The notes under the pieces: generated by a model
Databases searched by the model: none
Seen by the model: only the letters and a program-made list of their open reading frames with translations
Told to the model about the DNA's origin: nothing
Shown here: one piece after another, positions 5,440 to 21,628 of the stretch
How the letters are laid out: every line of letters begins with the position of its first letter
Position numbering within the stretch: position 1 is the first letter of the stretch
Assembly: GCA_041651355.1 (NCBI GenBank)
Contig: JBAZJK010000002.1
Coordinates: forward strand, 1 to 54,470
Source: Patescibacteria group bacterium
GTDB lineage: Bacteria > Patescibacteriota > Patescibacteriia > Patescibacteriales > UBA12465
Direction: 5' to 3'
DNA length: 54,470 nucleotides
Program-made: the position numbers and the translations under genes

Positions 5440-6603
5440 ATGGTTGAAGCCCAAGAAAAGAGATCAAAGCGGATTGCGGAGCTTAAGCGGAATATCATAA
5501 ACACCGCAACCAAAAGAGCGCAGGAGGCATCCTATCCTATCGCCGCCCGCAATAAAAATTTGCTTCTGAATGACTTTGAATATGCAACAGGCAAGATAGC
5601 CCTAGAGTCTTCTCCCGAGGGTATCGGTATAGGGACGCATTACGCCTGCAATGGGAAATGCGTTTTTTGTTTAGGCGGAAAACCCCGGATTTTCTCGCTT
5701 GAGAGATATAGGGAATTTTTTGAGCCGAGACTGGAAAACGTTTTATCAAGAGCAAGCTATGTGAGCTTCTGCGGTTTCGGAGAGTTGTTTTTAATGCCGC
5801 GGGTAGAGGAATTCATGGATTATGTAAATAAAAAAATTCCATGGGCTAATAAGATATATACTACAAACGGAGCGCCTTTAGCCAATGATAAGATATTAAA
5901 TTTACTTACCCAGAGCCAATCCGCAGTGCAGATATCTCTTCACGCCTCTCATAGAGAGCTCCACAGGGCCTTGACGAAATTAGACTCCTTTGACGAGATT
6001 GTAGCCAGAATAAGACAAATAATCTCTATGCGTAAGTCAAAAGAGCGCCCCAGCGTGATTCTGGTTTTTCTTATCAACAGCCTGAATGTGGAGAATCTTG
6101 CGGATTTTGTGGAGTTTGCCCATCGCCTGAGGGTAGACGAGGTGCGATGTAATTATATGACGGCATTCCATCACTCCCAGCTAAAGCTTTCATGTTTCTT
6201 TAAACAAGAGTTAACCAACCGGAGCCTGGAGGAGGCCGAAGAACGCGCTGCTAAGTTGGATTTGATTTTGAAACTGCCTCCGAGATTCGGCCGGGGTAGT
6301 CAAGGAACAGGGAGCCTCCTGTGCGCCGAACCCTGGAAATACATCTATGTGGAGAATGAATCTTCGGTCCTGCCGTGTTGTTATGCAGGCAGTCACTTCG
6401 GCTATTTGGACAGGATGGACTTTCAGACTATCTGGAACGGCTCAAGTTATAGGCAGTTGCGCAAGTCCTTGGTAGAGGGGCCGCCCCATAAATGGTGCAA
6501 ACATTGCCAGAGATACCGCGCAGAAAATATAAACGACATCCGTTCGCACATAAACTTCCGCCCCGGAGGGCTTTTAAAGATCTTGAAAGGGTATAAATTA
6601 TGA
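5440..6603 (+). CDS. Radical SAM/SPASM-domain protein (module A)
   Basis: CNGKCVFC, GFGE, TTNG, SLHAS. C-terminal CAEPW...PCC...IWNG...CKHC. Confidence 0.9.
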   Translation: MVEAQEKRSKRIAELKRNIINTATKRAQEASYPIAARNKNLLLNDFEYATGKIALESSPEGIGIGTHYACNGKCVFCLGGKPRIFSLERYREFFEPRLENVLSRASYVSFCGFGELFLMPRVEEFMDYVNKKIPWANKIYTTNGAPLANDKILNLLTQSQSAVQISLHASHRELHRALTKLDSFDEIVARIRQIISMRKSKERPSVILVFLINSLNVENLADFVEFAHRLRVDEVRCNYMTAFHHSQLKLSCFFKQELTNRSLEEAEERAAKLDLILKLPPRFGRGSQGTGSLLCAEPWKYIYVENESSVLPCCYAGSHFGYLDRMDFQTIWNGSSYRQLRKSLVEGPPHKWCKHCQRYRAENINDIRSHINFRPGGLLKILKGYKL

Positions 6604-9287
6604 AAGTTGCTCTTGTGCAATGCCCGGGCTGGGGCAGGGATTGCCCTCCTTATACGCTGGCGCTTTTTGCAGCATATCTGCGTCAAAATGAACATCGTGT
6701 TTTCAGTTACGATATCAATAACGCACTTTATTGTAGCGGACCTGACAAGTACAGGAGGATGTGGGATGACAAGGATCTCTATTCCTTTTGGAGCAACAAG
6801 TCCCTCATTACAGAGTTTATCCGGGACAACGAGAGGATGGTGGAATTTCAAGTAAAACATATTTTAGACAGCGGCGCCAAAATCATCGGTTTTAGCGTTC
6901 AGTTTAGTTCTCTGCTTGTCAGTTTAGAGGTAGCTCGCAGGATTAAGGCTAAATCCAGGGATAGAATTATTGTTTTTGGAGGTCCGGACTGCTGCCGCCA
7001 TTTACGGGGCTCAGAGATAATAAAAGAGGATTGCGTAGATGTCGTAGCGCTTGGCGAAGGAGACACAACATTATTAGAGTTAGTGAATATGGTAGAACTG
7101 GACGGCAAGGTAGAAAATTGCCCGGGCGCCTTACTTAAAAAAGAAGGGAAGATTTTTGATTGCGGCGACGGGATTGCAGTGAGAGATCTTGATCTTATCC
7201 CCTTTCCAGATTATAGCGATTTCAGAAAAGATATTATGGCCGGTCATTATCGTCAGCCCGAACGCCTAGAGATATTTGACAGCCGGGGATGCATTACTCG
7301 TTGCCATTTCTGCAGCGAATGGCAGTTTTGGCAAAATTATCGTTCCATGAGCGGAGAGAGAATATTCGAAGAGGTTGCTTATCAGATAAGGCGTTTTCCC
7401 GGAACGGAATATTTTTATTTTATCGGTTCACTCTTAAACGGGAATATAAAATCATTAAACAGGTTTTGTGATTTGGTAATACAGAATAGTCTGGTGGTAA
7501 GATGGGCCGGTCAGGCGGTAATAAGGCCAGAGATGAGCGCGGAACTTTTAGGAAAAATGAGAAAGGCCGGTTGCGAATGGTTGGGATATGGCATTGAAAG
7601 CGGCTCGCAGAGAGTAGTGGACAGCATGAATAAGCACTTCTTTATTGCGGATGCCGAAAGGGTATTAAGGGATACCCATCAGGCAGGGATTGGCACCCAG
7701 GTTAATTTTATGTTCGGCATTCCCACTGAGACATTGGAAGATTTTAAGGAAACACTGGAATTCCTTAAAAGAAACAGGGAGAACATTGATTCGGTTCTAG
7801 CAAGCCAATCGTTCTGCGTTTTAGACAAAGGCACATACCTTTACAACCATGCCGAGGAATTCGGCATCAGGAATCCCGATCATCATCTGTATTGGGAGAC
7901 AGACGGCAACGATTATCCGGAGAGATTCAGAAGGTATGAGGAATTTTGTAGTCTAGCCCTGTCTTTGGGGCTTCCGGAGACATCGGGCGTACTAAGGTTG
8001 AAACCCGACAAATGGGCGCTCTTGGGGGATTATTACCTTTTCAAGAAAGACTATCCCATGGCCAAAGAGTGCTTTCTTAAATCTATGGAAAGAGAATCCA
8101 GCAACAATACGGTCTCTGCGAAATTAGAGCTATGCGTCAAAGATCCGGAGGGAGCTCCTGGCGCTGCCCAGCGGGCTGAACTGCAGATCTACCCGGCAGA
8201 AGTTGCCGGAGAGCTTAGCGGGATGCAACAGAAAATCAGGGATGCGCTTAGTCGCTTTGGCCTGGCGGGGAAATTACGCAACTTCCTTGCAATGGAAAAA
8301 GAGAAACAGGAGCGCAGGGAAGAATTGGAATCCCATCCTTACTGGTTGACCATTGATCCCGCAAATTTTTGCACCCTTAGGTGCCCTTTTTGCCCTACCG
8401 GACAGAATCGCGGCTCTAGGGAAAAAACCAAGCTTTCCTTCGATAGTTTTGAAAAGATAATAGATGAGCTAGGCCCGTATTTAATCCATATAGATTTCTG
8501 CAACTGGGGGGAGCCCCTTTTGAATAAAGACATCTATAAGATGATAAGATGCGCCAAGGGGTATGGTATCGACACAAAGATAGACTCAAACCTTAACGTT
8601 TTCAGCGAAGAGGACGCCGAGGACATCGTATCATCGGGGCTGGATAAGATAATCGTCTCGATTGACGGGGCAACTCAGGGGTCATATTCGAAATACAGGA
8701 TAGGAGGGGATTTTAACGTCGCGTTAAATAACCTCAGGTTATTGATTGAGAAAAAAAGAGAGCTCCGCAAAGCAAATCCGTATATCTGCTGGCAGTTTCT
8801 TGTCTTCAGGCACAATGAGCACGAGACCGAAAAAGCGAAATCCATAGGCAGGGACCTGGGGGTTGACGACGTATCGATCACCAAGGCGTTTATCGGTAAT
8901 AAAGATTGGATACCACTTAATGAGCACTACAGTCATTACAAAAATAGCGAGATTGGCGATGACCAGTATACCTCCGGCTATTTCAAGTCTGCCAACGAAG
9001 AATTCTGTAATTGGCCGTGGGAAGCAATAGTAATAAATTCCAACGGATCCGTTTCGCCATGCTGTTCTGTTGAAGACGAAAAATACGATTTCGCAAACAT
9101 ACTGAAGCAGCCGTTTAAAGAACTCTGGAATAACGAAAAGTATATCAGGGCAAGAAGGTTTATCGGCAAGAGAGGCGGATGCGGTAGAGATAACGCAAAT
9201 ATATGCCACGGATGCAGGCACTCAGGACTAATCAATATAGATATACTTTCTTGCCACTCGTTATTTAATCGCGATGATAATAAATAA
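6600..9287 (+). CDS. Cobalamin-binding radical SAM fused via a TPR-like linker to a second radical SAM/SPASM domain (modules E+D)
   Basis: N-terminal B12-binding-type region (MKVALVQCPGWG...PP, GFSV, FGGP, GEGD). CITRCHFC at 7290-7313, GIESGS. TPR-like WALLGDYYLFKKDYPMAKECFLKSME. Second motif CTLRCPFC at 8370-8393, NWGEP, CNWPW...PCC...CHGC. Confidence 0.9.
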   Translation: MKVALVQCPGWGRDCPPYTLALFAAYLRQNEHRVFSYDINNALYCSGPDKYRRMWDDKDLYSFWSNKSLITEFIRDNERMVEFQVKHILDSGAKIIGFSVQFSSLLVSLEVARRIKAKSRDRIIVFGGPDCCRHLRGSEIIKEDCVDVVALGEGDTTLLELVNMVELDGKVENCPGALLKKEGKIFDCGDGIAVRDLDLIPFPDYSDFRKDIMAGHYRQPERLEIFDSRGCITRCHFCSEWQFWQNYRSMSGERIFEEVAYQIRRFPGTEYFYFIGSLLNGNIKSLNRFCDLVIQNSLVVRWAGQAVIRPEMSAELLGKMRKAGCEWLGYGIESGSQRVVDSMNKHFFIADAERVLRDTHQAGIGTQVNFMFGIPTETLEDFKETLEFLKRNRENIDSVLASQSFCVLDKGTYLYNHAEEFGIRNPDHHLYWETDGNDYPERFRRYEEFCSLALSLGLPETSGVLRLKPDKWALLGDYYLFKKDYPMAKECFLKSMERESSNNTVSAKLELCVKDPEGAPGAAQRAELQIYPAEVAGELSGMQQKIRDALSRFGLAGKLRNFLAMEKEKQERREELESHPYWLTIDPANFCTLRCPFCPTGQNRGSREKTKLSFDSFEKIIDELGPYLIHIDFCNWGEPLLNKDIYKMIRCAKGYGIDTKIDSNLNVFSEEDAEDIVSSGLDKIIVSIDGATQGSYSKYRIGGDFNVALNNLRLLIEKKRELRKANPYICWQFLVFRHNEHETEKAKSIGRDLGVDDVSITKAFIGNKDWIPLNEHYSHYKNSEIGDDQYTSGYFKSANEEFCNWPWEAIVINSNGSVSPCCSVEDEKYDFANILKQPFKELWNNEKYIRARRFIGKRGGCGRDNANICHGCRHSGLINIDILSCHSLFNRDDNK

Positions 9288-9338
9288 AGGACACGCCGTT
9301 TATCTAAATAACCCCGGTTTTGATACAGAAGCAATATT

Positions 9339-12113
9339 ATGAAAATCGCACTTATTCAATGCCCGGTATGGGGCACCTATGATCCGCCGCTCGCCTTAGC
9401 CCAGCTTTCCGCCTGTCTGAAGAAAGACGGACATGAGATATGCGCTCTGGATTTGAATATCGAGCTATATCTTAGCCGCCAGGAAAATTATAAGAATACC
9501 TGGGCCTGGGAACAATCTCTTTTTTGGTACAATCAGGAGTGCGTATCAAAATTTCTTGCCGATAACAAAGACACAATAAATAAATACGTAGAACAGATTG
9601 TTGACGGCGGATATGGCGTGGTTTGTTTTTCTGTAACGGCAGCTTCAAAACTGTCCAGTCTGGAATTAGCGCGGTCAATCAAGAAACGCAACAAGGGTAT
9701 CATTATAATATTCGGAGGTACCCTATTTTTTGACAGGAATTTTATAAAAGTAATATTAAGCGACGCATCCGTAGATATCGTAGCATGCGGAGAAGGAGAA
9801 GTAACATTATCTGAATTGGCAAGGCTCATAGAAAATAAAGAACACTTAGATGCCTGCCGCGGGATAGCTTTTAAAAATAAAGGCATACGGGTTAACCCCG
9901 AACGGCCTTTAATCGGAGATTTGGATGATCTACCGTTTCTGGATTTTTCCCAATTGCCGCTATCCAACTATGACGATAAAGGCCACGTCGCATTTCTATC
10001 CAGTCGCGGTTGTTGGCAACAATGCGTATTCTGCAGTTCCCGGACATTCTGGGCCGGCTACCGCAGGATGAGCGCTAAGAGGATTTTTGATGAAATACAC
10101 TTCCACTATAAAAATAATGACGAGGTTAGGCATATTGACTTCTTGGATTTGATGTTTAACGGAGATATAGAAGAGCTTAATTCATTCTGCGACCTGATGA
10201 TTGGTTCTGAGTTAAAGGGGAGGATATGTTGGGCAGCTAATGCTATTATCAGGCCCGAGATGACCCCTGCGTTATTAAACAAGATGAAGGCGGCAGGCTG
10301 TAAGCATCTCATCTATGGCATCGAATCAGGGTCGCAGAAGGTATTGAATTTAATGAAAAAACGATACAGGATAGAAGATGCCGATATCGTAATCAAGGCT
10401 ACCCATGAGGCCGGCATAGTAGTGACCGCTAATTTTATGTTTGGTTTCCCCGGAGAGAGCGAAGAAGATTTCGGGCAGACGCTTGGTTTTCTCAAGAGAA
10501 ATGCCAGGTATCTGGATAGGGCTTATCCCAGCCGCACCTTTTGCGCCCTGGAGGAAGACAGTTATTTACACGCGCATTTAGAAGAATTCGGTATCAAGCC
10601 CAATCCGCCCAATCATTTATATTGGGAGTCGCTCGACAGCCAAAATACCTACCCCGAGCGACTGAGGCGATGCGAGGAATTCTGCAATCTCGCATCTTCC
10701 TTGGGGATCGAAGTAGCCAGCGGCGTACAGACATCCGTAGAGCTAGACCGCTGGTTTAATCTGCTGCATTACTACGAACAGAAAAAAGACATAAAGAACA
10801 TGCTTCAGTGCTGCCTGAACTATTATAAATCAGAGCCCGATAACGAGTTCGTTGTGGGAAAAATTGAAAAATATTTTTATGGATTACAAGAAGAAGAAAG
10901 AGAAAAAATTCTCGGAGCGAGGTTATTCTCCGAATTGCAGATAGTTGTCAATAAGATAGGCTCCAAATGTTCTGCCCTCGCCTTAGTGTCAAATCAACAG
11001 GTAGAAAAGATTGGCAGAGAAAAAAGCTTTGCTTTAGCGATAGCCGAACAGCGGGACAATAAACAGCTCACCGAGACGGAATATCATAATAATGAGAGTA
11101 GCCTTAATTCCTGGCCAAGGGTTTTGTTCATTCAAGCCTCCGGACCATGCAATTCAAGTTGCGTATTTTGCTCCCGCGGCGATAATTACAAGATGTTTGA
11201 CTTGGAGGAATTTAAGAAAGGTTTTGTTGAAAATTTCTACTTTTTGTTTTATATAGCGGAAAAGATTGTTTTAACGGGTTCAGGCGAATTTCTTCTTTTG
11301 CCCGAGGCAGAAAAAATATTGGATTATTTCGATGAAAATTTTCCGCATATAGAGAAGATGTTTGCGACCAACGGCTCGGGTCTCCTCCCCAGCATAGCTA
11401 AAAAAATCGTAGATAGTAAAAGCAGGTATACAATTCATTTTTCTTTACACGCTTCCAATCACAAGCTGCACAAAACCCTTACCCGGATGGATAATTTTTA
11501 TAAGATATTAGGTCAATTGAAGTATTTACTTGATATCAGGAAAGACAAGGAGAGGCCAGCCGTCCACCTTACCTTTGTAGCTACAACCTTGAACATCGAG
11601 GACCTTCCTAACTTCGTCAGGTTGGCTTCCAACCTGGGAGTCGATAAGGTCGTATGTTATTATAACTATATATATGTACCTGCCCAGAAGTATCTCTCAT
11701 GTTTTTTTAAACAGGATATTACCAACAGCGTGCTGGATGAAGCCGAAGATTTAGCAAGGAGTCTAAAGGTACAACTTGAGCTCCCCCCCAGGTTTAAACA
11801 GAAGGAATATCCCAAATTAGATATCTGCCGCGAGCCGTGGACGCAGGTAATGTTTGATATCGACGGTAATGTTTTGCCATGTGATGCCTCGGAAGACTTC
11901 CGAGGCAATCTCAAAAATGCCAAACATTTCCATGAGATTTGGAACGGGCAGCATTACCGCAGGTTAAGGGAGTCTTTAATTAATGGCACCAGCGATTGTT
12001 TTAAGTATTGTTTTAGGGCAAATCCGGCGGCGGTTAATGATTTTCGCTCCCATGTCATACGTAGAGGCAGGGAGGCGTCAGAAATAGATGTTTATTGGGG
12101 GGATAACTTTTAG
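9339..12113 (+). CDS. Cobalamin-binding radical SAM fused to a second radical SAM/SPASM domain (modules E+A)
   Basis: MKIALIQCPVWG...PP, FGGT, GEGE. SRGCWQQCVFC at 10011-10034, GIESGS. Second motif CNSSCVFC at 11148-11171, SLHAS, LSCFF, LPPRF, CREPW. Confidence 0.9.
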   Translation: MKIALIQCPVWGTYDPPLALAQLSACLKKDGHEICALDLNIELYLSRQENYKNTWAWEQSLFWYNQECVSKFLADNKDTINKYVEQIVDGGYGVVCFSVTAASKLSSLELARSIKKRNKGIIIIFGGTLFFDRNFIKVILSDASVDIVACGEGEVTLSELARLIENKEHLDACRGIAFKNKGIRVNPERPLIGDLDDLPFLDFSQLPLSNYDDKGHVAFLSSRGCWQQCVFCSSRTFWAGYRRMSAKRIFDEIHFHYKNNDEVRHIDFLDLMFNGDIEELNSFCDLMIGSELKGRICWAANAIIRPEMTPALLNKMKAAGCKHLIYGIESGSQKVLNLMKKRYRIEDADIVIKATHEAGIVVTANFMFGFPGESEEDFGQTLGFLKRNARYLDRAYPSRTFCALEEDSYLHAHLEEFGIKPNPPNHLYWESLDSQNTYPERLRRCEEFCNLASSLGIEVASGVQTSVELDRWFNLLHYYEQKKDIKNMLQCCLNYYKSEPDNEFVVGKIEKYFYGLQEEEREKILGARLFSELQIVVNKIGSKCSALALVSNQQVEKIGREKSFALAIAEQRDNKQLTETEYHNNESSLNSWPRVLFIQASGPCNSSCVFCSRGDNYKMFDLEEFKKGFVENFYFLFYIAEKIVLTGSGEFLLLPEAEKILDYFDENFPHIEKMFATNGSGLLPSIAKKIVDSKSRYTIHFSLHASNHKLHKTLTRMDNFYKILGQLKYLLDIRKDKERPAVHLTFVATTLNIEDLPNFVRLASNLGVDKVVCYYNYIYVPAQKYLSCFFKQDITNSVLDEAEDLARSLKVQLELPPRFKQKEYPKLDICREPWTQVMFDIDGNVLPCDASEDFRGNLKNAKHFHEIWNGQHYRRLRESLINGTSDCFKYCFRANPAAVNDFRSHVIRRGREASEIDVYWGDNF

Positions 12114-12940
12114 TGGTCGAAAATAGCGTTCCTTTACGGTTTACCTGGGATATCCATTATAAGTGCAATTTCCGCTGTCCTTACTGCTGGTTTTATAAAA
12201 AATGGATAAGCGAAGGCAGGCGGTATCTTCTTCTTTCCCCCGACGAATGGCTTAAGCACTGGTTAAAGGTTCGCAATCGCTATGGAGAAGCAGATATCGC
12301 TATTACCGGCGGGGAACCGTTTCTTTATCCGAATTTTATCGAGATAATAAAAATACTGTCTTTGATACACAGGATAAAGATTACCACGAATATGTCAGGT
12401 GATATCGATACCTTTGTTAAGCAGATAGCCCCCAGCAGAGTAACGTTAGACCTGAATTTCCATCCGCTCTTTTCTGAAATAGGAAGTTTTATAGAAAAGA
12501 CCCTTCTTTTAAAAAAGGCGGGTTTCCGGGCCGGCGTATGTTATTTGGCCTATCCTCCTCAAATGGGGCAGATAGATATTTTTAGAAGGCGTTTTGAGGA
12601 AGCGGGGATTAACTTTGCCCTTGCCGCTTTCTGGGGTGAATTTGAAGGCAAGAGATACCCGCAGAGCTACACTCCACAGGAGTTGGATTTTATACGTCCG
12701 TTTTTAGGAGACATCGACAGGATTGTTTATCATCTGGGCGCCGAAACCCCCCGCGGAAAACTCTGCAATGCGGGGTATACCTACGCAATTGTTCAAGGGG
12801 ATGGTTATGTAGTAAGATGCGGTCAGTTAGCAGATAAGTTCATAGGAAATATTACGGATGAAGATTTTAATCTCTTTGATTCGCCAAAGGCCTGCGAAGC
12901 GGAGTTTTGCCCGTGCAATGAATACGTTAATTTAATCTAA
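12113..12940 (+). CDS. Compact radical SAM protein with short C-terminal Cys domain (module B)
   Basis: GTG start overlaps the upstream TAG. FTWDIHYKCNFRCPYC, GGEPF, TTN, YPP, C-terminal C...RC...CEAEFCPC. Confidence 0.88.
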   Translation: MVENSVPLRFTWDIHYKCNFRCPYCWFYKKWISEGRRYLLLSPDEWLKHWLKVRNRYGEADIAITGGEPFLYPNFIEIIKILSLIHRIKITTNMSGDIDTFVKQIAPSRVTLDLNFHPLFSEIGSFIEKTLLLKKAGFRAGVCYLAYPPQMGQIDIFRRRFEEAGINFALAAFWGEFEGKRYPQSYTPQELDFIRPFLGDIDRIVYHLGAETPRGKLCNAGYTYAIVQGDGYVVRCGQLADKFIGNITDEDFNLFDSPKACEAEFCPCNEYVNLI

Positions 12941-12967
12941 AGAAAACTCGAGCCCCGGGTAGCCATC

Positions 12968-14845
12968 ATGAATGAGACGTCTAAGTATTTCAGAAAAAAC
13001 ATATTTCCCAAGAGGGTATTTTTAAACTGGGAGGTTACTCATCAGTGCAATTATAATTGTTTGTACTGTTCAATTCATAAGCCATTAACGACTGAATCTC
13101 TGCCCCGCCTGTCTATGGGAAAAATGAAGGAGATAAGCTGCGGGATATATGAGAGCTACGGAAGTTGTCATATAAGATTTTCAGGAGGGGAGCCTTTTGT
13201 TTGCCCGGATTTTATCCAGTTTCTTCGGGTGCTTTCAGAGTATCATACCCTGGAAGTCTCGACCAATCTCTCTGCGGATGTAAATAATTTAAAGGAACGA
13301 CTGTGTCCGGAGGGCCTGCTTTTATCAAGCAGTTTTCATCCGCAGTTCATTGATATCCACGAATTTCTAAAGAAGGTCCTATTTTTAAAAAATAGCGGGT
13401 TCGATATTTCGGTTACCTTTGTAGCATATCCTCCATTTTTGGCGCAACTAAAATATTATAGAGAGACCATAGAGAATAATGGAATACAATTCATCATTCA
13501 GCTTTTTAGCGGCGCATTCAACGGCCTAAGGTATCCGGAGTCATATACAGATGAGGAAAAAATGTTACTTAAAGAGCAGGCCGGCCTTTCTTTGCACAAA
13601 GATGCTAATAAGCAGATATACGAATCAAAGATGGATATCGGGAGAATCCACGCTCGCATTTGCCGCATGGGCCAGATGTATGCCAAGATCGACAATAATG
13701 GCGATGTATTCCGCTGTTGCGCATCAGGTAGCCCCAAATTGGGTAATATATTTAATGGTGGCTTGCAATTGTTGGATAAACCCCAGGCGTGCGAAATTAA
13801 CCCTTGCCCGTGTTGGAAGGCTATGATAGTAGGAGAAGAAGAGGTCTGGCTTAAGAATTGGGAATATCAAAAGCATCGGAAAGAAGGTAATTCCATTGAG
13901 GGAGGTGGTAACTTGGAGTCGTCTCTTAATATCAAGGAGACCATCCCGAGAGAATCAATTCCTCCCCACCGCGTATTTTTTACTTGGGATATCCATTATA
14001 GATGCAACTACAGGTGCACATATTGTAATGCCCCAAAGCCGGGGCAGGGAGGCTTTATTGAGGCGCGATACCTGCCGATTGATAAATGGTTAGCTATTTG
14101 GGGAGATATTTATGAAAGGTACGGCAGGTGCCAGATACAGTTATCGGGAGGCGAGCCGTTTATTTATCCCGGAGCCATGGATTTAGTAATACAGCTTTCT
14201 AAAATACATACCTTGGAATTTTCAACTAACTTTTATTGGGACATCGAGCCTTTTATACAAAATGTTAGTCCGGACAGAGCGCGGATAGGCGTAAGTTTTC
14301 ATCCCGAATTTGCTGATTTCGGTTCATTCTTAGACAAAGCCTTAAGGTTAAAAAGAAACGGGTTTGAAGTGTGGGTAAATTACGTAGCTTATCCCGCCTT
14401 ACTAAAAGACATGCCGGGATATAAACTTGAAATAGAGAGAGCGGGGATGCATTTTTCAATTTTGCCGTTCACGGGGCAATTTGAAGGGAGGGTATTTCCC
14501 GGGGGATATACTGAGCGCGAAATGATGGTTATAAATGAGGGGTATGTGGCGGCCGACGAAGTCAATAAAAAAACAATAGATTGGAATATGGGTGAACAAA
14601 AGAACAAGACCAAAGGAAAATTATGCCGCATGGGGCAAATGTACGGAAAGATCCGTCCTAATGGATTGGTGCATAGGTGTTGCGGCACCCCGGCTAGTGA
14701 GTTGGGCAACATAATCGATGGGACGTTTAAGTTATCGGAGGAACCCCTGGCTTGTGAGTCAGAGCAGTGTCCTTGCTGGCGATGTATGCTTGTATCGGAT
14801 GAAGGGCAGTGGTCAACCCATTGGGTTATACCTCATAAGCGCTAG
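12968..14845 (+). CDS. Tandem double radical SAM protein (modules B+B)
   Basis: Two homologous halves, CNYNCLYC and CNYRCTYC. Each half has GGEPF, STN, SFHP, CRMGQMY, and a C-x4-CPCW ending. Confidence 0.9.
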   Translation: MNETSKYFRKNIFPKRVFLNWEVTHQCNYNCLYCSIHKPLTTESLPRLSMGKMKEISCGIYESYGSCHIRFSGGEPFVCPDFIQFLRVLSEYHTLEVSTNLSADVNNLKERLCPEGLLLSSSFHPQFIDIHEFLKKVLFLKNSGFDISVTFVAYPPFLAQLKYYRETIENNGIQFIIQLFSGAFNGLRYPESYTDEEKMLLKEQAGLSLHKDANKQIYESKMDIGRIHARICRMGQMYAKIDNNGDVFRCCASGSPKLGNIFNGGLQLLDKPQACEINPCPCWKAMIVGEEEVWLKNWEYQKHRKEGNSIEGGGNLESSLNIKETIPRESIPPHRVFFTWDIHYRCNYRCTYCNAPKPGQGGFIEARYLPIDKWLAIWGDIYERYGRCQIQLSGGEPFIYPGAMDLVIQLSKIHTLEFSTNFYWDIEPFIQNVSPDRARIGVSFHPEFADFGSFLDKALRLKRNGFEVWVNYVAYPALLKDMPGYKLEIERAGMHFSILPFTGQFEGRVFPGGYTEREMMVINEGYVAADEVNKKTIDWNMGEQKNKTKGKLCRMGQMYGKIRPNGLVHRCCGTPASELGNIIDGTFKLSEEPLACESEQCPCWRCMLVSDEGQWSTHWVIPHKR

Positions 14846-14852
14846 GATATTA

Positions 14853-15692
14853 ATGGAAAAACTGAATAACAAACGGATTACATTCTCTTGGGATATACAT
14901 TATGCCTGTAATTATCGTTGTCCGTATTGTTGGTATGCGGCGGACGGGACGTTTTTAAAAAATAAAAATAAATACCTACCATTTAAAAAGCTGATAGATA
15001 TCTGGACCGACATGCATAGAAAACACGGTTCCTTATGGATTGATATAATCGGAGGCGAGCCGTTTATCTATCCTGATTTTAACGAGATAATCAGAGAGCT
15101 TTCCAAAATGCATTTCATAGAGATTACCTCTAATCTGTCAACTGATCTATCAAGCTCTCTAGGCGGGATAAACCCCGAAATGGTGCGCATCGCAGGGACG
15201 CTGCACCCCCTATTCGCAGACCTGCGCGTTTTTATCAGGAACTTACTGGCGCTTAAAGAGCATGGGATAAAAACCTTTGCGCTCTATTTGGCATATCCGC
15301 CTCAAATCCCTCTCATTCCGTATTACAGGGAGAAATTCGCTTATTGCGGGATAGACTTCTCGGTAATAACCTTCTGGGGGGAATATAGGGGTGTCAGGTA
15401 TCCTGAAGGATACAGCCAGGAAGAAATAAATATTATCGAGCCTTTTTTGGGAGAGCGAGGGGAGGAAAAATATCAATTGCGTCCTAAAGAGGTAAAGAGA
15501 AAAATATGCCGTGCCGGGCAAATTTACGTAAATCTAAAAGCCGACGGGTCTGCGTATAGATGTGGTTCCCATAAATCCCAATCATTGGGGAACCTGTTTG
15601 CGGGTAACTTTCAGTTGCTGGATAAGCCCATGCCGTGCGATTCAGACTTTTGTCCCTGCAATGAATGGGCCGGCTTGTTAGTCGAGACGTGA
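14853..15692 (+). CDS. Compact radical SAM protein (module B); start moved from 14718 to ATG 14853
   Basis: MEKLNNKRITFSWDIHYACNYRCPYC, GGEPF, YPP, CRAGQ, CDSDFCPC. ATG 14853 lies 8 nt after the upstream stop and aligns with the paralog starts. Confidence 0.88.
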   Translation: MEKLNNKRITFSWDIHYACNYRCPYCWYAADGTFLKNKNKYLPFKKLIDIWTDMHRKHGSLWIDIIGGEPFIYPDFNEIIRELSKMHFIEITSNLSTDLSSSLGGINPEMVRIAGTLHPLFADLRVFIRNLLALKEHGIKTFALYLAYPPQIPLIPYYREKFAYCGIDFSVITFWGEYRGVRYPEGYSQEEINIIEPFLGERGEEKYQLRPKEVKRKICRAGQIYVNLKADGSAYRCGSHKSQSLGNLFAGNFQLLDKPMPCDSDFCPCNEWAGLLVET

Positions 15693-15719: not shown

Positions 15720-16349
15720 ATGAGTAAAATGCTAAGCGGACTTGGAAGGGTCTTTGTGATCCTGACCGATGAACAAAATAAAATCTTGAGGCGCTCCGTT
15801 CTTATTGTGGATAACGGTTATTACCCGCAGGAGCACCTGCGCAGCGTTGTAGCGGAAACACAGAGGCGCATTCCGGCTTCCGAGGTCGCAATCCTTTCTT
15901 TTGAACATAGAAGAGGCTATCTTCAAGAAAATTTTCCAGATATCAAAGCTGTCTTTCCGGGAAAATGGATTAGGCCGCAAAGATATAGTTTAGCCATTAA
16001 GTTGTTAATCCTAAGCAGAAGGGGTTACGATTTTGTGGTTGTAATGTCTTTGGACAAGACGCCGATAATAGTTGCGTTATTGTTCATGAATGCACAGCTC
16101 TTTTTATATAATAGATGGAACGAATGGTATCTTTTGAGATTCAGGAACCCTTGGGAGTTTTTAACATTCAGGGAAGGACAGGATATAGCTAAATATAGAT
16201 CTCGAAACAGCCGGTTTATAAATTTATTTTTATTTATACCCAGACTCATTCTTCATGTTCTCGTATTCATATATTTAGCATCCTATAGTTTATTTCTTCT
16301 CTTTTATAGACTTTACAATATTATTAAAATCAGGTTATTGAAGAAATAG
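15720..16349 (+). CDS. Hypothetical protein with C-terminal hydrophobic segment; possibly a lone GT-B (GT9-like) N-terminal Rossmann domain
   Basis: In-operon ORF. VLIVD...FP.SEVAIL...YDFVVVM pattern resembles the GT9 N-domain. Hydrophobic FLFIPRLILHVLVFIYLASYSLFLLF near the end. Confidence 0.55.
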   Translation: MSKMLSGLGRVFVILTDEQNKILRRSVLIVDNGYYPQEHLRSVVAETQRRIPASEVAILSFEHRRGYLQENFPDIKAVFPGKWIRPQRYSLAIKLLILSRRGYDFVVVMSLDKTPIIVALLFMNAQLFLYNRWNEWYLLRFRNPWEFLTFREGQDIAKYRSRNSRFINLFLFIPRLILHVLVFIYLASYSLFLLFYRLYNIIKIRLLKK

Positions 16350-16365
16350 AACAAGAGAAGCGACT

Positions 16366-17424
16366 ATGGAAACCGATGTCCGGCAGTTTAGCTCCGATAA
16401 AATATTAAAGCATCTGGATCGCGTTAATGAATGGCTCGAGGGACTTAATCCCCCGCCGGTTACCGTTGAGCTGGACATGACAAATTTATGCAACCATAAG
16501 TGCCCCGAGTGCGTAGTTAACTATTTCAGAGTCGCCGATAAAAGCGCGCTTTCAGGCGTTACCGCTAAATCCATCATTAGACAATTAGCGAGAGCCAAGG
16601 TGAGGGGGTTGATATTCACGGGAGGCGGAGAGCCGCTTTGCAACCCCCATACCTTATCGGCCGTGGAATTGGCGAAGGCTAGCGGGTTAGACGTAGGCTT
16701 TATCACCAACGGCGCGCTCTTAAATCAAAAGATAGCAGGGGCTTTATTAGAGAGCTGCACTTGGATTAGGGTATCTCTGGATGCCGGCTCGCCGCGGGCG
16801 TTCCAGTCTACCCACGGCATGAATGATAGTGAGTTCCGTAAGGTCGTTGATAATATCGGGGTTTTGACAGGTCTCAAGAGAAAAATGAAAAACAGATGCA
16901 CCGTAGGCGTCGGTTTTCTTACCTGTGATTATACGACTACCGATATGGAGAAGGCGGCGGCATTGAGTAAAAGGATGGGCGTTGATTACCTGCAGTTTAG
17001 GCCGATGCAGATCCATAGAGGTGGAAAATTTGGGTATCATTGGTTAGACGTGCAGGCCAATATAAAAAAGTGCCTAAGATATTCCGGAAATGGTTTCCAG
17101 GTGCTTTATTCCAAACACAAATATGATATGGCCCACGACCCGCGTTTCGGCAGGCATTATCGGAAATGTTACGGGCATCAATTCGCGACGGTAGTAGCTG
17201 CGGATGCCAAGATGTATCTTTGTTGCCACACCCGCGGATACAAAAAATACTGTATCGGAGACCTGAAAAAAGATTCTTTTAAGAAAATCTGGAATTCCAA
17301 GAGGAGAAAAACGGTAGCCAAAAGGATTGATTTTAAGGACTGCATTCCTTTATGCCGCGATAATACTTTTAATCAGATACTGTGGAATATAAAACAAAAC
17401 AGGGAGCACGTGAATTTTCTATAG
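16366..17424 (+). CDS. Radical SAM/SPASM-like protein (module C)
   Basis: PVTVELDMTNLCNHKCPEC, GGGEP, ITNG, SLDAG. C-terminal CYGHQF...CC...IW...C...CR. Confidence 0.9.
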   Translation: METDVRQFSSDKILKHLDRVNEWLEGLNPPPVTVELDMTNLCNHKCPECVVNYFRVADKSALSGVTAKSIIRQLARAKVRGLIFTGGGEPLCNPHTLSAVELAKASGLDVGFITNGALLNQKIAGALLESCTWIRVSLDAGSPRAFQSTHGMNDSEFRKVVDNIGVLTGLKRKMKNRCTVGVGFLTCDYTTTDMEKAAALSKRMGVDYLQFRPMQIHRGGKFGYHWLDVQANIKKCLRYSGNGFQVLYSKHKYDMAHDPRFGRHYRKCYGHQFATVVAADAKMYLCCHTRGYKKYCIGDLKKDSFKKIWNSKRRKTVAKRIDFKDCIPLCRDNTFNQILWNIKQNREHVNFL

Positions 17425-17431
17425 CAATCTC

Positions 17432-18649
17432 ATGAAACGGCATAGTAACCCAGGAAATAAATTCTTGGTTATCAAGACAGTATCGGGTTATGTATTAAAA
17501 GGGTTTATTAGCGCAGCAGTTTTTTTAATAATTTTAGAAGCGGCACTGCAGATAACCGGGACAGCATATCTAAGATTAAAATATACAATTAAAAACCCGG
17601 AAGCGCTAAAGGACGATTCTTTACGCATAATGTTTATAGGGGATTCCTGGACGCAGGGGGCTGACGCAGCCCCGGGGCCGGGATATGTAATGCTGGTGAC
17701 GCAAGAATTGAACCGCCTTTACCCTGTTAAAAGCATCCAGGTATATAATTTTGCCTTAGGCAGCACGAATTCATCGCAGGCAATACATCAGTTTTTAGAC
17801 AACTATCGCAATATAAAACCCGATATATTGGTGGTTTTGACAGGGGCAAATAACGGATGGAATACCCAAGATATTATAACCGCCCGCAAGCGCATTAGAA
17901 ACGGGATAATTAATTATAATGAGCTGGAAAACACTAGTTTTGCCGAACAGTCCGCCAACTTTTTTAAAAAATTGAAGATCGCAAAGTTATATAACTTGAT
18001 TTCGTACAATATATTTTATAAATCCCAGGAAATCAAGATTCCCCTGCCCGACAATGAATACCTTCTTGGTTACCATAAAATTTTTAATGCTACCAGGGAT
18101 CCAGAAAAAGCAAGATTATATTTAATAAATAACTATAAGGAAAATACGACTGATTACAATGATCTTTATAAAGCAACGCGGCATTCCTTTGGAGGCGACA
18201 TAGAAAAAACCTTAAATTATTTAAAAAATAAAAACATGCTCAAACTTAATTTGATTAGCGAGAAAATAGATATAAAGAAGGATAGAACCAGTCGGTCTCT
18301 TCATTTGAAAATCCTGGAAGAGAATCTGACGGATTTGAAAGACCTGTGCGACCAGGAAGGCATAATAATGGTTGTAGAGAATTATCCTTATAATAGTATG
18401 CAGTTTAGAGCTGTCAACGATGCCCTCGGCAGAATATCTTCAAGGATAAATGCAGTCTATGTAAATCATTACGGGTATTTCAAGGATAAAGTTGGCTATG
18501 AAGAATGGGATAAGGTTATGACTAAGTCGCACGTTAATTATAAAGGTCACGAGTATATGGCGGACAATCTGGTTGAGATATTGAGCGCTGCTATTGCTAC
18601 TCAAGAGAGAAGCAAAAAAGATAGGGAGAATATGAATTCTGAAAAATGA
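17432..18649 (+). CDS. Membrane-anchored SGNH/GDSL-family protein (putative esterase or O-acyltransferase)
   Basis: N-terminal TM segment. Block I FIGDSW, block II NFALGS, block III TGANN, block V TKSHVNYKGH. Confidence 0.8.
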   Translation: MKRHSNPGNKFLVIKTVSGYVLKGFISAAVFLIILEAALQITGTAYLRLKYTIKNPEALKDDSLRIMFIGDSWTQGADAAPGPGYVMLVTQELNRLYPVKSIQVYNFALGSTNSSQAIHQFLDNYRNIKPDILVVLTGANNGWNTQDIITARKRIRNGIINYNELENTSFAEQSANFFKKLKIAKLYNLISYNIFYKSQEIKIPLPDNEYLLGYHKIFNATRDPEKARLYLINNYKENTTDYNDLYKATRHSFGGDIEKTLNYLKNKNMLKLNLISEKIDIKKDRTSRSLHLKILEENLTDLKDLCDQEGIIMVVENYPYNSMQFRAVNDALGRISSRINAVYVNHYGYFKDKVGYEEWDKVMTKSHVNYKGHEYMADNLVEILSAAIATQERSKKDRENMNSEK

Positions 18650-20523
18650 AACGCGGCCCCCTGAACAATAGATTGCATGCGGCTTGGGAGATTTTTTATA
18701 GGTGTAATTATAGGTGTCCCTATTGTTTTTTCTACGAGAGTTGGGCAGACCGCAGGATAAGCTATAAGCATGTACCAGCTGAGAAATGGATTGAATGCTG
18801 GGACAGAGTTTATGATAGATACGGGAGTGTAAATATCTGTATATCCGGCGGAGAGCCGTTTATCTATCCCGGCTTTATGAAGATAGTCGCCGAGCTGTCC
18901 AAGAGACACGCGCTGACGATTGTGACCAATTTATCATGGGAAACCGAGATATTTGTTAATACAGTATTTCCTCAAAGAGTGGCTATTCATCCGAGTTTGC
19001 ACCCCTTGTTTGCCGATTTAGGAATTTTTAAGAGTAAATTAAGACGCTTAAGAGAGAAGGGATTTGATGCTACGCCGACATGCGTAGGCTATCCTCCCCT
19101 ATTGAAAAAAGCCTTAGATATTAAGAAAGAATTAGAAAACGATAGATTTGGCTTGGTGGTTTCTCCGTTTTCTGGGGTGTACAATGGGATTCTGTATCCC
19201 CAGGGATATACTGATGAGGAGAGGCGTCTTGTAGGCATGCTCTCTGCAGATGACCCTAAGATGAAAAAATACCAGTTGGAAAAAGCTCCTACTAAAGGCA
19301 AATTGTGCAGTGCCGGGCAGGCATATATAAGGGTTCATCCGGATGGTGACATTTTCCGTTGTGCGCATGCTATTAAACCGATGGGCAATATTCTAACTGA
19401 TGATTTTAGCCTTTTGAAAGAACCGCAACCTTGTGAAGCGAATTCCTGTGAATGCGGGAATGAGCTGGTACACATTATCGACGATAAAACGACTAAATCA
19501 GAGAACATTTTAAGCGTTGACTCCTCATTTGTCAGGAAAGAACTAATAGTCGGTGGATACCCCTATCGTTTGCGCGTGGAAATATCTAATGCCTGCAATT
19601 TAAGATGTACGTCTTCAAAAGAGGCTTTCAGCAGATGTCCGCAGTGGGAGATTAACAATGCGGCTCCTGTTTTGATGTCATTTGATTTTTTTAAAAAGAT
19701 TGCGGATGAGACTGGACGGTATCTTACCCATGCCGAACTTTATAATTACGGCGAGCCTTTCATGAATCCCCGCGCCGTTGATATGATACGTTACCTTAAG
19801 CAGATAAATCCAGAGGTTATTATTGAGATGCATACGAACGGGCATTATTTTAAGACTGAGAAGAAAAGAGAAGATATTATCAATTCAGGTTTAGATATTT
19901 TGTCGTTTTCTGTAGACGGTATCACCCAAGAGGTATATGAGAAGTATCGTATCGGCGGGGATTTAGAGACGGTGCTTAGAGCTATCAGGGGAATCTGCGC
20001 TTTGAAAAAATCGATGAATATGCTGAAACCAAGGGTGATTTTTCAATTTATCGTATTTGAGCATAACTTCCATGAAGCGCCGAAGGTCGAAGAATTTGCC
20101 AAAGAGTTAGGGGCGGATGAGGTGGCTTTAAAGACCGATATCTTTAACCTCAGGCCCGAATTGAAGATTTCGCACGCGGATATCTATAGCGCCGTCGTCG
20201 GCCTTCAAAGCAAGGATAGCAGAGACAATTTTTTTAAGAAGGACGAAGATGCCGGCCGTCAGTTTTGCGATTTTCCTTGGGTTTATCCGACTATTCTTGC
20301 GGACGGCCGGGTAGTTATCTGTTGCCGGGATGGGCGTTATGAAAGTCTTGTCGGGGCAATCGGGGGTAGAACTTTAATCCAGGTATGGAATAACGAGGCA
20401 GCCCAGGAATTCCGCAGGAGATTCTTGGAAGAAGATACCAAACCCTACCCCTGTTCTCTATGCGAATGTAGGCCGAAAAATAATAGTATCACTGTGGGTG
20501 AAAAATGCAGTTGCCGGAATTGA
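18646..20523 (+). CDS. Double radical SAM protein (modules B+D); second domain has an atypical CX3CX9C motif
   Basis: CNYRCPYC, GGEPF, CSAGQ, CEANSCEC. Then SNACNLRCTSSKEAFSRC, NYGEP, SVDG, YRIGGD, CDFPW...CC...CSLC. Confidence 0.88.
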   Translation: MKRGPLNNRLHAAWEIFYRCNYRCPYCFFYESWADRRISYKHVPAEKWIECWDRVYDRYGSVNICISGGEPFIYPGFMKIVAELSKRHALTIVTNLSWETEIFVNTVFPQRVAIHPSLHPLFADLGIFKSKLRRLREKGFDATPTCVGYPPLLKKALDIKKELENDRFGLVVSPFSGVYNGILYPQGYTDEERRLVGMLSADDPKMKKYQLEKAPTKGKLCSAGQAYIRVHPDGDIFRCAHAIKPMGNILTDDFSLLKEPQPCEANSCECGNELVHIIDDKTTKSENILSVDSSFVRKELIVGGYPYRLRVEISNACNLRCTSSKEAFSRCPQWEINNAAPVLMSFDFFKKIADETGRYLTHAELYNYGEPFMNPRAVDMIRYLKQINPEVIIEMHTNGHYFKTEKKREDIINSGLDILSFSVDGITQEVYEKYRIGGDLETVLRAIRGICALKKSMNMLKPRVIFQFIVFEHNFHEAPKVEEFAKELGADEVALKTDIFNLRPELKISHADIYSAVVGLQSKDSRDNFFKKDEDAGRQFCDFPWVYPTILADGRVVICCRDGRYESLVGAIGGRTLIQVWNNEAAQEFRRRFLEEDTKPYPCSLCECRPKNNSITVGEKCSCRN

Positions 20524-20542
20524 ATTACAAATTTAAACGATA

Positions 20543-21628
20543 ATGAGGTCCGGGCAATCAGAAAACAAGGCGCTTAACGAAAAAGAATATGTTGCCCGAA
20601 AAGACATTCTGCAATCCGGTCCTAGCAACATAATTTTATGCTCAACTTATAAATGTAATATGAGTTGTATTTTTTGCTTGGGGAGAGGTCAAGACCCCGA
20701 TTTCAACTGCGATATTTATAAAAAAATTTTCGAAAATAAATTACGCCGGTTTTTAGAAAATGCTACGGATATCTGTTTTACGGGATGGGGAGAATTCCTA
20801 TTATGGCCCGGGGCAGCGGACTTCTTAGGTTATCTTAACGAGCATTTCCCCGAAGCAAACAAGATTCTTACCACTAACGGCACCCCCTTGTCGGAAGCCA
20901 TGGCGAGCAAGATGATAATCGGAAATTATACGGTACAGGTCTCCTTACATACATCTGATGCGCTTATCCATAGGTCGCTTACGCAGTCTGATTTTTTTGA
21001 GCAGATTGTCATGAATCTGGACAATTTGATTCTGCTAAGAAACGAGAACAGTTGCCATTCAAAATTATGGATAGTCTTGATGTTCCTTGTAACCTCATTA
21101 AATATTGAAAATTTACCTGATTTTGTGGATTTTGCAGGATTGCGCGGGGTAAACGAGGTATTTTGTAACTATATAACTATTTTTTTGCCTGAGCAGATTG
21201 GGTTGTCATGTTTTTTCTCGCCCCAGAACACTAACCGGATATTTGATGAAGCGCAAAAGAGGGCTCAAAGATATAATATGCGTTTAAATCTGCCTCCTCG
21301 GTTTGGCCTAACAGACGGCATGCAGCGAGAAAGCGTATGCCAAGACCCCTGGAACACTGTTTTTATAGACGGGTTAGGGAATATCCACCCCTGCTGTTTT
21401 TCCGGCAGACCTATAGGCAATATTAACATGGATGATTTTGGGGCGATATGGAATGGAGAAAATTACAGGGAATTGCGCAATTGTTTAACCGAGAATAGGT
21501 CACATGAAAGATGTAAAAATTGCTATAAGTTTTCTCCGGTAAACGTTAACGATATAAAGTCACACGTTACCTTTCGCGACATTCGCGCCAAAGAAGATAT
21601 TTTTAGAAGATTAAACCTAGAAGCTTAA
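20543..21628 (+). CDS. Radical SAM/SPASM-domain protein (module A)
   Basis: CNMSCIFC, GWGE, TTNG, SLHTS, LSCFF, LPPRFG, CQDPW...PCC...CKNC. Confidence 0.9.
   Translation: MRSGQSENKALNEKEYVARKDILQSGPSNIILCSTYKCNMSCIFCLGRGQDPDFNCDIYKKIFENKLRRFLENATDICFTGWGEFLLWPGAADFLGYLNEHFPEANKILTTNGTPLSEAMASKMIIGNYTVQVSLHTSDALIHRSLTQSDFFEQIVMNLDNLILLRNENSCHSKLWIVLMFLVTSLNIENLPDFVDFAGLRGVNEVFCNYITIFLPEQIGLSCFFSPQNTNRIFDEAQKRAQRYNMRLNLPPRFGLTDGMQRESVCQDPWNTVFIDGLGNIHPCCFSGRPIGNINMDDFGAIWNGENYRELRNCLTENRSHERCKNCYKFSPVNVNDIKSHVTFRDIRAKEDIFRRLNLEA

Follow-up and report, generated by a model that had tools for sequence, protein, structure and literature searches.

How does a single locus come to hold the same catalytic modules both as free-standing genes and as parts of larger proteins, in pairings that differ from gene to gene, and on what would such modules act? 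The question is raised by positions 5440-21628 of the window, by which we mean the whole stretch of 54,470 nucleotides analysed here (contig JBAZJK010000002.1 of the Patescibacteria group bacterium assembly GCA_041651355.1). This region holds 11 genes, nine of which encode radical S-adenosylmethionine (rSAM) proteins, with 13 rSAM modules in total by Pfam. It is probably the tailoring section of a polysaccharide locus, composed of 13 autonomous rSAM units that have been duplicated, fused and split, and that would act on sugars. A sequence-only reading of the region had proposed that it evolves by mix-and-match fusion of catalytic units, much like a modular polyketide synthase or nonribosomal peptide synthetase (PKS/NRPS), and that fusion partners may indicate consecutive reactions. 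The modules, together with module F just ahead of the region, are listed below; every long open reading frame (ORF) of the window lies on the + strand.

about 4319-5425, + strand: module F, the C-terminal rSAM/SPASM domain of g01 (Pfam; CNSKCIMC at residue 1415)
5440-6603, + strand: g02, free rSAM/SPASM module A2 (Pfam; 36-40% identity to A4 and A12)
6600-8237, + strand: N-terminal module E3 of g03, a B12-binding-like domain plus rSAM (Pfam)
8238-9287, + strand: C-terminal module D1 of g03, rSAM/SPASM (CTLRCPFC at residue 591)
9339-11015, + strand: N-terminal module E4 of g04, a B12-binding domain plus rSAM (PF02310, 33.7 bits against a cut-off of 32.1)
11016-12113, + strand: C-terminal module A4 of g04, rSAM/SPASM (A4 orthogroup)
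12113-12940, + strand: g05, free compact rSAM module B5 (Pfam; B alignment)
12968-13867, + strand: N-terminal module B6N of g06 (B6N orthogroup)
13868-13939, + strand: inter-module linker of g06, residues 301-324 (AlphaFold2 (AF2) predicted local distance difference test (pLDDT) about 31)
13940-14845, + strand: C-terminal module B6C of g06 (B6C orthogroup)
14853-15692, + strand: g07, free module B7 (B7 orthogroup)
16366-17424, + strand: g09, free rSAM/SPASM module C (Pfam)
18646-19491, + strand: N-terminal module B11 of g11 (B tree)
19492-20523, + strand: C-terminal module D2 of g11, rSAM/SPASM with CX3CX9C (motif; free orthologues)
20543-21628, + strand: g12, free rSAM/SPASM module A12 (Pfam)

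The coordinates and pairings of the sequence-only reading, namely A alone twice, E+D, E+A, B alone twice, B+B and B+D, are all borne out by the ORFs, Pfam, all-against-all blastp and competitive assignment to a module library. Its list lacked g09 (class C), the C-terminal domain of g01 and five further rSAM genes that lie downstream in the island, at 29714, 31179, 33859, 35298 and 38095. For g07, the ORF list gives a start at 14718 that overlaps g06, and homology begins at the ATG at 14853. Copies of the same class share 30-40% identity with blastp E-values of 1e-40 to 1e-136, far beyond chance, and the five B copies have 48 invariant positions in common, among them five C-terminal cysteines. 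One CX3CX2C motif is present in each of 12 of the 13 modules, the exception being D2 of g11 with CX3CX9C. The genome, 1.07 Mb in size and about 98% complete, contains 27 rSAM domain matches, 19 of them in the window and 13 in 5440-21628.

Per-domain trees, which the sequence-only reading had named as its own check, recover these modules as evolutionary units, with A, D, C and F as clades (supports of 98-100) and the E and B orthogroups supported at 92-100. A profile of the five B copies was used to retrieve 76 loci in species-representative genomes and a further 80 in metagenomes (related loci carry L numbers below, and proteins P numbers), in which ORFs of at least 100 amino acids were annotated by their best match to the window modules, with a library that was later refined. 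The rSAM/SPASM tree was built from 89 segments in IQ-TREE under LG+C20 with posterior mean site frequencies (PMSF); trees are unrooted, and supports are values of the Shimodaira-Hasegawa-like approximate likelihood ratio test (SH-aLRT). Clade A contains 52 rows (99), D 19 (98), C 7 (98) and F 8 (100), on long stems of 1.3-2.4 substitutions per site, and all seven members of C are free. Class A consists of three deep subfamilies, A2, A4 and A12, of which A4 forms an orthogroup of 39 rows (99) and A12 is a deep branch within the clade whose nearest solved sequence is BtrN, while class D consists of two, D1 (g03) and D2 (g11; a long branch of 1.91). The E tree separates E3, the g03-type orthogroup (17 rows, 99), from E4, the g04-type (33 rows, 99), and contains further paralogues that the window does not carry. 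In the B tree of 113 rows, where class B falls into at least seven orthogroups, support is 95 for B6N, 99 for B6C, 100 for Bx, 96 for B11 and 94 for B7, and less firm for B5. Placing the N-terminal module of g06 with the B7 group is rejected by the approximately unbiased (AU) test with p = 1e-9, the group having been chosen after the tree was viewed.

Within these orthogroups, a mixture of free and fused members is the rule across the E, B, A and D trees, and the B tree requires a minimum of 31 changes between the free and fused states. A4 is free in all Endomicrobia and Elusimicrobia loci and in L016, L020 and L034, and it is fused as E4-A4 in 12 loci, as E4-Bx-A4 in L017, L019 and L021, and as Bx-A4 in L015 and P0034-P0036. 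Free copies of D1 occur in Endomicrobia, L031 and L034, the one of L031 being sister (98) to the fused D1 of L012, and E3 is free in Elusimicrobiota, L031 and L034; elsewhere the two are joined, the E3-D1 fusion occurring in nine loci. Bx, which is absent from the window, stands free in L016, within E4-Bx-A4 in L017 and within Bx-A4 in L015. B5, free in the window, is the second half of Bx-B5 in its closest relatives (L011-L014, L022 and L168).

The remaining B modules and A2 show the same behaviour. B7-B6C was found in 18 loci or proteins, B7-B6N in three (L016, L034 and L168), and B6N-B6C in the window, L168 and P0016; B6N is free in Endomicrobia, and the partners of B6C elsewhere are B7, B9, B5, E4b and M. 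A2 is free in the window and occurs as GTpol-F-A2, behind a polymerase-like glycosyltransferase (GT) protein, in L017 and L021 and as F-A2 in L016; by tree path its nearest copies are the fused ones of L017 and L021, a join of weak support (SH-aLRT 80). B11 groups (96) with B modules that are C-terminal in the GT-GT-B polymerase-like proteins of L053 and L092. The B11-D2 fusion was found in the window's strain only, D2 orthologues of 74-76% identity being free, and D2 is likewise free in L167, in the order C, a 117-aa ORF, D2, rSAM, GT9. Among the top 150 cluster representatives of the B family, 63 are multidomain, for example B-E-A-B (1482 aa), A-B-A, E-B-B and E-B-M. A count over about 90 related loci and 220 database proteins gave 44 multi-module architectures with 40 ordered junction types, both numbers being estimates that rest on best-hit labels from a small library and are approximate for distant proteins. 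The second check named by the sequence-only reading, a tabulation of fusion combinations in relatives, thus came out in its favour: pairings vary while modules persist, and fixed shared fusions are not the pattern.

Relatives also contain modules that the window lacks. A further rSAM/SPASM class, M, accounts for 51 ORFs in 25 related loci (for example L012 8011-9084 and L048 11793-12929), some of them in the fusions B6C-M, B7-B6C-M and M-M. Three extra free E paralogues of relatives, Ea, Eb and Ec, are absent from the window as well.

The tendency to fuse depends on lineage, being common in Omnitrophota and almost absent in Elusimicrobiota with the same toolkit. In Omnitrophota-labelled loci, 44 of 127 rSAM ORFs are multi-module (35%), and in the window 5 of 15 (33%), whereas in Elusimicrobiota-labelled loci the same orthogroups give 2 of 228 (1%), both of them M-M. 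This contrast of 35% with 1%, computed with the refined library that includes class M, is a description of kin that are not independent, and it may reflect few ancestral events per lineage. The bias matches a preprint (10.64898/2026.06.07.730766) that describes giant multi-enzyme proteins in Omnitrophota, including a GT/rSAM domain module. In the window's own surroundings, 24 same-family genomes and the same-genus genome (80% complete) yielded no g04 homologue, other families of the order contain only free B12-rSAM genes of about 485 aa, and a sample of 400 other genomes of the phylum yielded no B module, while homologous clusters lie in scattered Omnitrophota and Elusimicrobiota. Since the island is rare and patchy, the comparison rested on collection-wide locus searches. 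Such a distribution of sequences suggests an accessory surface-glycan island that possibly moves horizontally.

How fusions form and break can be read from the gene boundaries. In the window, gaps between genes range from -4 to +51 nt, with overlaps of 4 nt (ATGA) at g02/g03 and g10/g11 and of 1 nt at g04/g05. In the split version of L034, E4 ends in TAG and the ATG of A4 follows as the next codon, in frame, and E3 overlaps D1 in another frame; L031 has an ORF of 179 aa separating E3 from D1. In fused E4-A4 proteins, a poorly conserved spacer of about 30-35 residues falls exactly between the domain ends of the split versions. For 14 of the 23 junction types found in the loci, the units also exist elsewhere as neighbouring separate genes in that order, and for 17 they do so if either order is counted. 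Broadly, gene order is conserved between the loci of Omnitrophota (GTpol-F(-A2), E3-D1, E4-A4, Bx-B5, B7-B6x), Elusimicrobia (L049: F, E3, A2, D1, B7, E4, A4, Bx) and Endomicrobia (L039: A2, D1, A4, E4, Bx, B6C and onwards). Local rearrangement is visible in Bx, which stands before or after A4, and in B7, which stands before B6N or after B6C. One locus, L168, carries B7-B6N, B6N-B6C and B7-B6C side by side; a simple swapping of partners among three single-copy B genes was considered and was revised after these three doublets were seen together.

Because so many junctions are adjacent genes elsewhere and the genes are so tightly packed, the main mechanism is probably the fusion and fission of neighbours together with duplication. 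Most fusions fit the loss of a stop codon or a frameshift within a tightly packed operon, and local rearrangement, duplication of doublets and gain or loss of modules would contribute as well. About five rSAM families (the class-B-like E, the SPASM types A, D and C, and the compact B) would first have diversified by repeated duplication. As the genes lie head to tail, with stops and starts overlapping or nearly touching, neighbours would repeatedly have been joined into one frame and then split again, while local rearrangement and module gain and loss acted alongside. The outcome would be that one orthologous unit appears free, in a doublet, in a triplet or in a quadruplet, with partners that differ by genome.

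Several points weigh against the account of recurrent fusion and fission between neighbours, besides the approximate architecture counts and the possibly few ancestral events per lineage mentioned above. The class labels on the trees came from best hits, a procedure that favours clustering, and since the trees are unrooted, fusion and fission are not separable for single events. Six junction types, including B11-D2, GTpol-B11 and GTpol-F, are without an adjacent-separate counterpart in either order, so the fusion of neighbours does not explain everything. As the three doublets of L168 imply, whole doublets have been duplicated, and this accounts for some of the apparent swapping of partners. 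In Endomicrobia loci D1 is found without E3, which counts against an obligate coupling of the two. As regards the nature of the modules, all score below the cut-offs of curated NCBIfam families, and their structural neighbours also include the peptide-modifying SPASM enzymes anSME, CteB, SuiB, SkfB and PqqE, so that fold alone cannot separate sugar from peptide substrates.

In nearly all fused modules the cluster motif is preserved. The CX3CX2C motif is retained in 78 of 78 fused B modules, 29 of 29 fused E modules and 18 of 19 fused A modules, and since the modules of a fusion each retain a [4Fe-4S] cluster motif of their own, the fused proteins are predicted to be multi-catalytic enzymes. 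In the AF2 model of g06, two domains mostly above a pLDDT of 85 are connected by a linker (300-324) of about 31, with a predicted template modelling score (pTM) of 0.51, which fits two independent units on a disordered tether. The model of g04 (pTM 0.76) has a helical spacer (471-543) followed by a short disordered stretch (544-561) and, although its alignment contains only 15 rows, is compatible with a defined E-A arrangement. The proposal that fusion partners catalyse consecutive reactions is plausible for E3-D1 and E4-A4, which recur with E always first and, for g04, with a pTM of 0.76; for B+D the case is weak, the fusion being present in one strain and D2 standing alone in orthologues. 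Recurrent pairs, namely E3-D1, E4-A4, Bx-B5 and B7-B6C, may mark units that work together.

Family scores place the modules in the rSAM superfamily and at some distance from characterised families. All 13 modules match PF04055 above 29.5 bits, B6N (31.1 bits) only by summing neighbouring matches in frame. PF13186 (SPASM/twitch), with a cut-off of 21.5 bits, is matched at 31.8-51.5 bits by A2, A4, A12, D1, D2 and C and at 22.1 bits by F, and the B modules have no match to it at the thresholds used, despite their five invariant C-terminal cysteines. PF02310 (B12-binding) is matched by g04 just above the 32.1-bit cut-off and by g03 below it, at 28.5 bits. The fold of E, searched with g04, matches OxsB, TsrM, CysS, MgmA, TokK and AprD4, the last of which has this fold but is not known to use cobalamin. 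The E modules of g03 and g04 score 139.6 and 152.7 bits against TIGR03975, below its cut-off of 281.85.

Class B is a separate, undescribed family, compact and large. STM4011 (NF038073) is the best NCBIfam match of all five B modules and is nearly full length, yet the scores of 69.6-120.7 bits fall well under the 200-bit cut-off, which sets B apart from that family. When the PDB was searched by sequence with this class's profile, matches were confined to the N-terminal cluster-binding part of the rSAM core (positions about 8-105), and the fold search is not diagnostic of the reaction. In an exhaustive profile search of 1.84 billion cluster representatives, the family comprises 718 clusters (50% identity) at E <= 1e-30. 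On a contig labelled as Candidatus Pacearchaeota, a DPANN archaeon (L070), seven free B-type rSAM genes, each of about 304-317 aa, stand in tandem at positions 3209-15600; provided that the contig was binned correctly, this array would be an independent expansion of the B family outside bacteria.

The aberrant motif of D2, at window positions 19594-19638 (g11 residues 317-331), is a conserved trait of the subfamily and not a lesion. CX3CX9C is kept in the free D2 orthologues P0002 and P0003 (74-76% identity), and more distant members have CX3CX11C, the D2 set inspected consisting of P0002, P0003, P0011 and P0025-P0028. Among these, P0011 is a D2-D1 fusion, and P0026 and P0027 join D2 to a 2-oxoglutarate (2OG)-Fe(II) oxygenase.

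What the modules act on is suggested by the genes around them. The remaining features at the start of the window and within the region are as follows.

3-182, + strand: 3' end (Wzt_C) of an ABC-transporter ATPase gene of Wzt type, truncated at the start of the contig (Wzt_C match 12-146, weak, 17.7 bits)
209-5428, + strand: g01, a GT2-GT2-GT4 polymerase-like protein of 1739 aa with a coiled coil (Pfam)
15720-16349, + strand: g08 (u08), 209 aa, of unknown family, adjoining module C (conservation in relatives)
17432-18649, + strand: g10, SGNH/GDSL esterase-like (Pfam)

No Pfam or NCBIfam match was obtained for g08. Its homologues always adjoin the rSAM/SPASM gene C, upstream of GT9 and GT2, and in L016, L033, L035, L052 and L060 they are proteins of about 350 aa with two tandem g08-like halves (L016 13758-14798, L033 10834-11889 and L035 2934-3980).

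An 81 kb assembly (L169) of the same organism, with an identical g01, extends the locus upstream. Directly ahead of g01 it contains a GT4, a WecA/MraY-type transferase (PF00953), a flavin oxidase, Wzm (PF01061, ABC2_membrane) and Wzt (PF00005 and PF14524, ABC_tran and Wzt_C; 569 aa), with Wzt at 5456-7974. Since the window opens in the Wzt_C end and L169 supplies these upstream genes, the whole island is an ABC-transporter-dependent polysaccharide locus, L169 and the window together containing the initiating transferase, Wzm, Wzt with Wzt_C and a multi-GT protein. Downstream, the window carries GT9, GT2, GT4, two GT-C, a glycoside hydrolase of family 5 (GH5), SGNH-TPR esterases, an aminotransferase and a split transketolase, and related loci add GT2, GT-C, SGNH and carbamoyltransferase genes. 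Fusion also links rSAM modules to glycosyltransferases, in g01, GTpol-F-A2, GTpol-B11, P0046 (GT1-rSAM) and P0051 and P0053 (GT2-rSAM). In P0084 (632 aa) a B module is joined to two Wzt_C carbohydrate-binding domains, which suggests that some B enzymes bind the ends of polysaccharide chains. Other B modules are joined to an aldo-keto reductase, a metallo-beta-lactamase-fold domain and O-methyltransferases (P0082, P0144 and P0032/P0033), and further rSAM fusion partners are 2OG-oxygenase and TPR domains.

The nearest solved relatives include the sugar- and nucleoside-modifying rSAM enzymes BtrN, BlsE, DesII, AprD4 and OxsB, and, taken with the gene neighbourhood, this makes a glycan the likely substrate of the array. 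In the ABC-transporter-dependent pathway the polymer is finished in the cytoplasm, so that oxygen-sensitive cytoplasmic rSAM enzymes could reach nucleotide sugars or the lipid-linked chain. Each unit would carry out one radical step on nucleotide sugars or on sugars of the undecaprenyl-linked polymer before export by Wzm/Wzt, the candidate step of E being C-methylation or rearrangement and those of the SPASM/twitch-type units oxidation, epimerisation, dehydration or decarboxylation. It is a more speculative and rather doubtful step to suppose that Omnitrophota tether these enzymes into radical tailoring trains, some of them attached to the polymerase, in which the order of modules encodes the order of radical steps on the growing polysaccharide; if true, this would be a new programmable logic of polysaccharide diversification under anoxic conditions.

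Other explanations of the variety of fusions have to be weighed. The fusions might be old and fixed, each doublet having arisen once and been duplicated whole, with the variety being due to paralogy and misassigned orthology. The B6N-B6C protein of g06 indeed has two-module orthologues in L168 and P0016, with both halves sister (99 and 85), L168 carries its three different B doublets side by side, E always stands ahead of its SPASM partner, B7 is nearly always N-terminal, and E3/E4 and D1/A4 resemble a duplicated pair. Such an account is nevertheless improbable, given that strongly supported orthogroups (Bx 100, A4 99) mix free and differently fused members, that the free D1 of L031 is sister (98) to the fused D1 of L012, that Elusimicrobiota orthologues are almost all free, that the B tree demands at least 31 changes, and that B11-D2 is confined to the window lineage beside free orthologues of 74-76% identity. 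That the fused and split states are instead artefacts of metagenome assembly or sequencing, such as frameshifts and chimeras, is a reading that has been largely refuted and is extremely unlikely. The data come entirely from metagenome-assembled genomes and metagenome contigs, and the frame overlap of E3 and D1 in L034 could stem from a single indel error; yet the fusions recur in diverged, independent assemblies (E4-A4 in 12, B7-B6C in 18, Bx-B5 in 11), the paralogues at 30-40% identity are too diverged for chimeric assembly, and the split boundaries of L034 (TAG then ATG) and L031 (an extra ORF of 179 aa) are clean. The 625-aa B11-D2 protein is present in three independent assemblies with 620-623 of 625 residues identical (2-5 differ) and the same linker, and full-length copies of g03 and g04 exist in another assembly at 95.9% and 97.2% identity.

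The substrate, too, has been read in other ways. If the modules were peptide-modifying rSAM/SPASM maturases and C-methyltransferases, the array would serve the maturation of peptides that are ribosomally synthesized and modified post-translationally (RiPPs), and the best NCBIfam match of E is indeed the RiPP rSAM C-methyltransferase family TIGR03975 (140-153 bits), SPASM enzymes being typically peptide maturases with anSME, CteB, SuiB and SkfB among the structural neighbours here. Those scores, however, are far under the 281.85-bit cut-off, a precursor gene would not fit into the region's gaps of -4 to +51 nt, and the modules are fused to glycosyltransferases and Wzt_C and located between Wzm/Wzt and GT genes. 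A RiPP recognition element (RRE) is unlikely, because the cluster motif lies 20-70 residues from the module start and Pfam finds no PqqD/RRE-like domain. On these four grounds, namely precursor room, RRE, sub-threshold scores and the fusions to GT and Wzt_C, RiPP maturation was ruled out as the leading explanation and now seems very improbable. Equally slim is the chance that the modules modify lipids or build a cofactor, for instance the tetrapyrrole-type cofactor proposed beside nitrogenase paralogs of Elusimicrobia. E has sub-threshold matches to the HpnJ, BchE and ladderane-type B12-rSAM families, and rSAM suites have been reported beside nitrogenase paralogs in groundwater Elusimicrobia, with GWA2_69_24 among the genomes named (bioRxiv 10.1101/765248); the related locus L054 belongs to that genome, and strong NifH-like matches were found in three of five Elusimicrobia genomes searched. 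But no frame of any fetched locus contains a NifH-type P-loop, the NifH-like genes of GWA2_69_24 sit on another contig, neither the window nor its relatives contain genes of lipid or tetrapyrrole biosynthesis, and the conserved neighbours are GT2, GT4, GT9, GT-C, SGNH, carbamoyltransferase and Wzm/Wzt genes. A link to the rSAM suites of nitrogenase paralogs was therefore rejected for the fetched loci.

The preferred reading, a glycan-tailoring array whose rSAM units are joined and split between neighbours, can be set beside known systems. The FO synthase FbiC consists of two rSAM domains fused in bacteria, while its counterparts CofG and CofH are separate in archaea (PMC11917521). Like FbiC, the array has autonomous rSAM domains with their own clusters, in fused proteins or adjacent genes (E3-D1, E4-A4 and the B doublets), and the alternation between fused and free states that defines FbiC was found for E3/D1, E4/A4, Bx, B5, B7, B6N, B6C, A2 and D2. 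FbiC has one fixed pairing, whose joint chemistry is known; the array, unlike it, has at least 15 orthogroups, about 44 architectures, up to four rSAM modules in a protein and partners that vary. By analogy, the fusion pattern would be of the Rosetta-stone type, as in FbiC and CofG plus CofH, and not an assembly line. The comparison of the sequence-only reading with a modular PKS/NRPS holds as far as large polypeptides contain recurring catalytic units in varied order and combination, and its claim of mix-and-match evolution stands in so far as the trees and the 44 architectures show persistent modules in varying pairings. Its likeness to an assembly line is not supported, because Pfam finds no carrier, condensation, KS (ketosynthase) or AT (acyltransferase) domain in any window gene: in contrast to PKS/NRPS, there are no carrier, tethering or docking domains, the units are autonomous and almost all free-standing in Elusimicrobiota, and the B-B linker is a disordered tether.

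Enzymes of sugar and nucleoside metabolism offer a second comparison. A and D match BtrN and BlsE, B matches BlsE, SpeY, BtrN and DesII, and E matches OxsB, TsrM, CysS, TokK and AprD4, with 12-18% identity to solved relatives, and the window modules resemble these enzymes in sitting among sugar-handling genes. GenK is a further enzyme of the cobalamin type in this group. Known enzymes of the BtrN type are single enzymes that act on small-molecule antibiotic precursors, whereas the array consists of many paralogues, often fused, in a polysaccharide export locus. With the ABC-dependent O-polysaccharide systems of the WbdA/WbdD and WbbB types the island shares a PF00953 transferase, Wzm, Wzt with Wzt_C and a multi-GT coiled-coil protein. 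In those described, chains are known to be capped or decorated with methyl, phosphate or Kdo groups by conventional enzymes; unlike them, the array comprises 13-19 rSAM modules, including one attached to the polymerase. In the literature, no account was found of a polysaccharide tailoring array rich in rSAM enzymes, nor of multi-rSAM proteins fused in a combinatorial manner.

For this organism, the finding means that 70% of the rSAM domains of the genome lie in one surface-glycan island. rSAM chemistry on polysaccharides is almost unexplored, and multi-rSAM polypeptides have been mainly single fixed cases such as FbiC. The analysis defines a large, unnamed, compact rSAM family, B, linked to glycosyltransferases and Wzt carbohydrate-binding domains, and it yields a Rosetta-stone map of rSAM families that probably cooperate: E3-D1, E4-A4, Bx-B5, B7-B6C, polymerase-F-A2 and polymerase-B11. 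The natural pairs of fused and split orthologues are material for asking whether fusion alters activity. With one toolkit in two phyla, 35% fused in one and 1% in the other, the array offers a natural experiment for studying how enzyme fusions arise, and why, and the comparison of its many states shows multi-enzyme proteins forming and breaking up.

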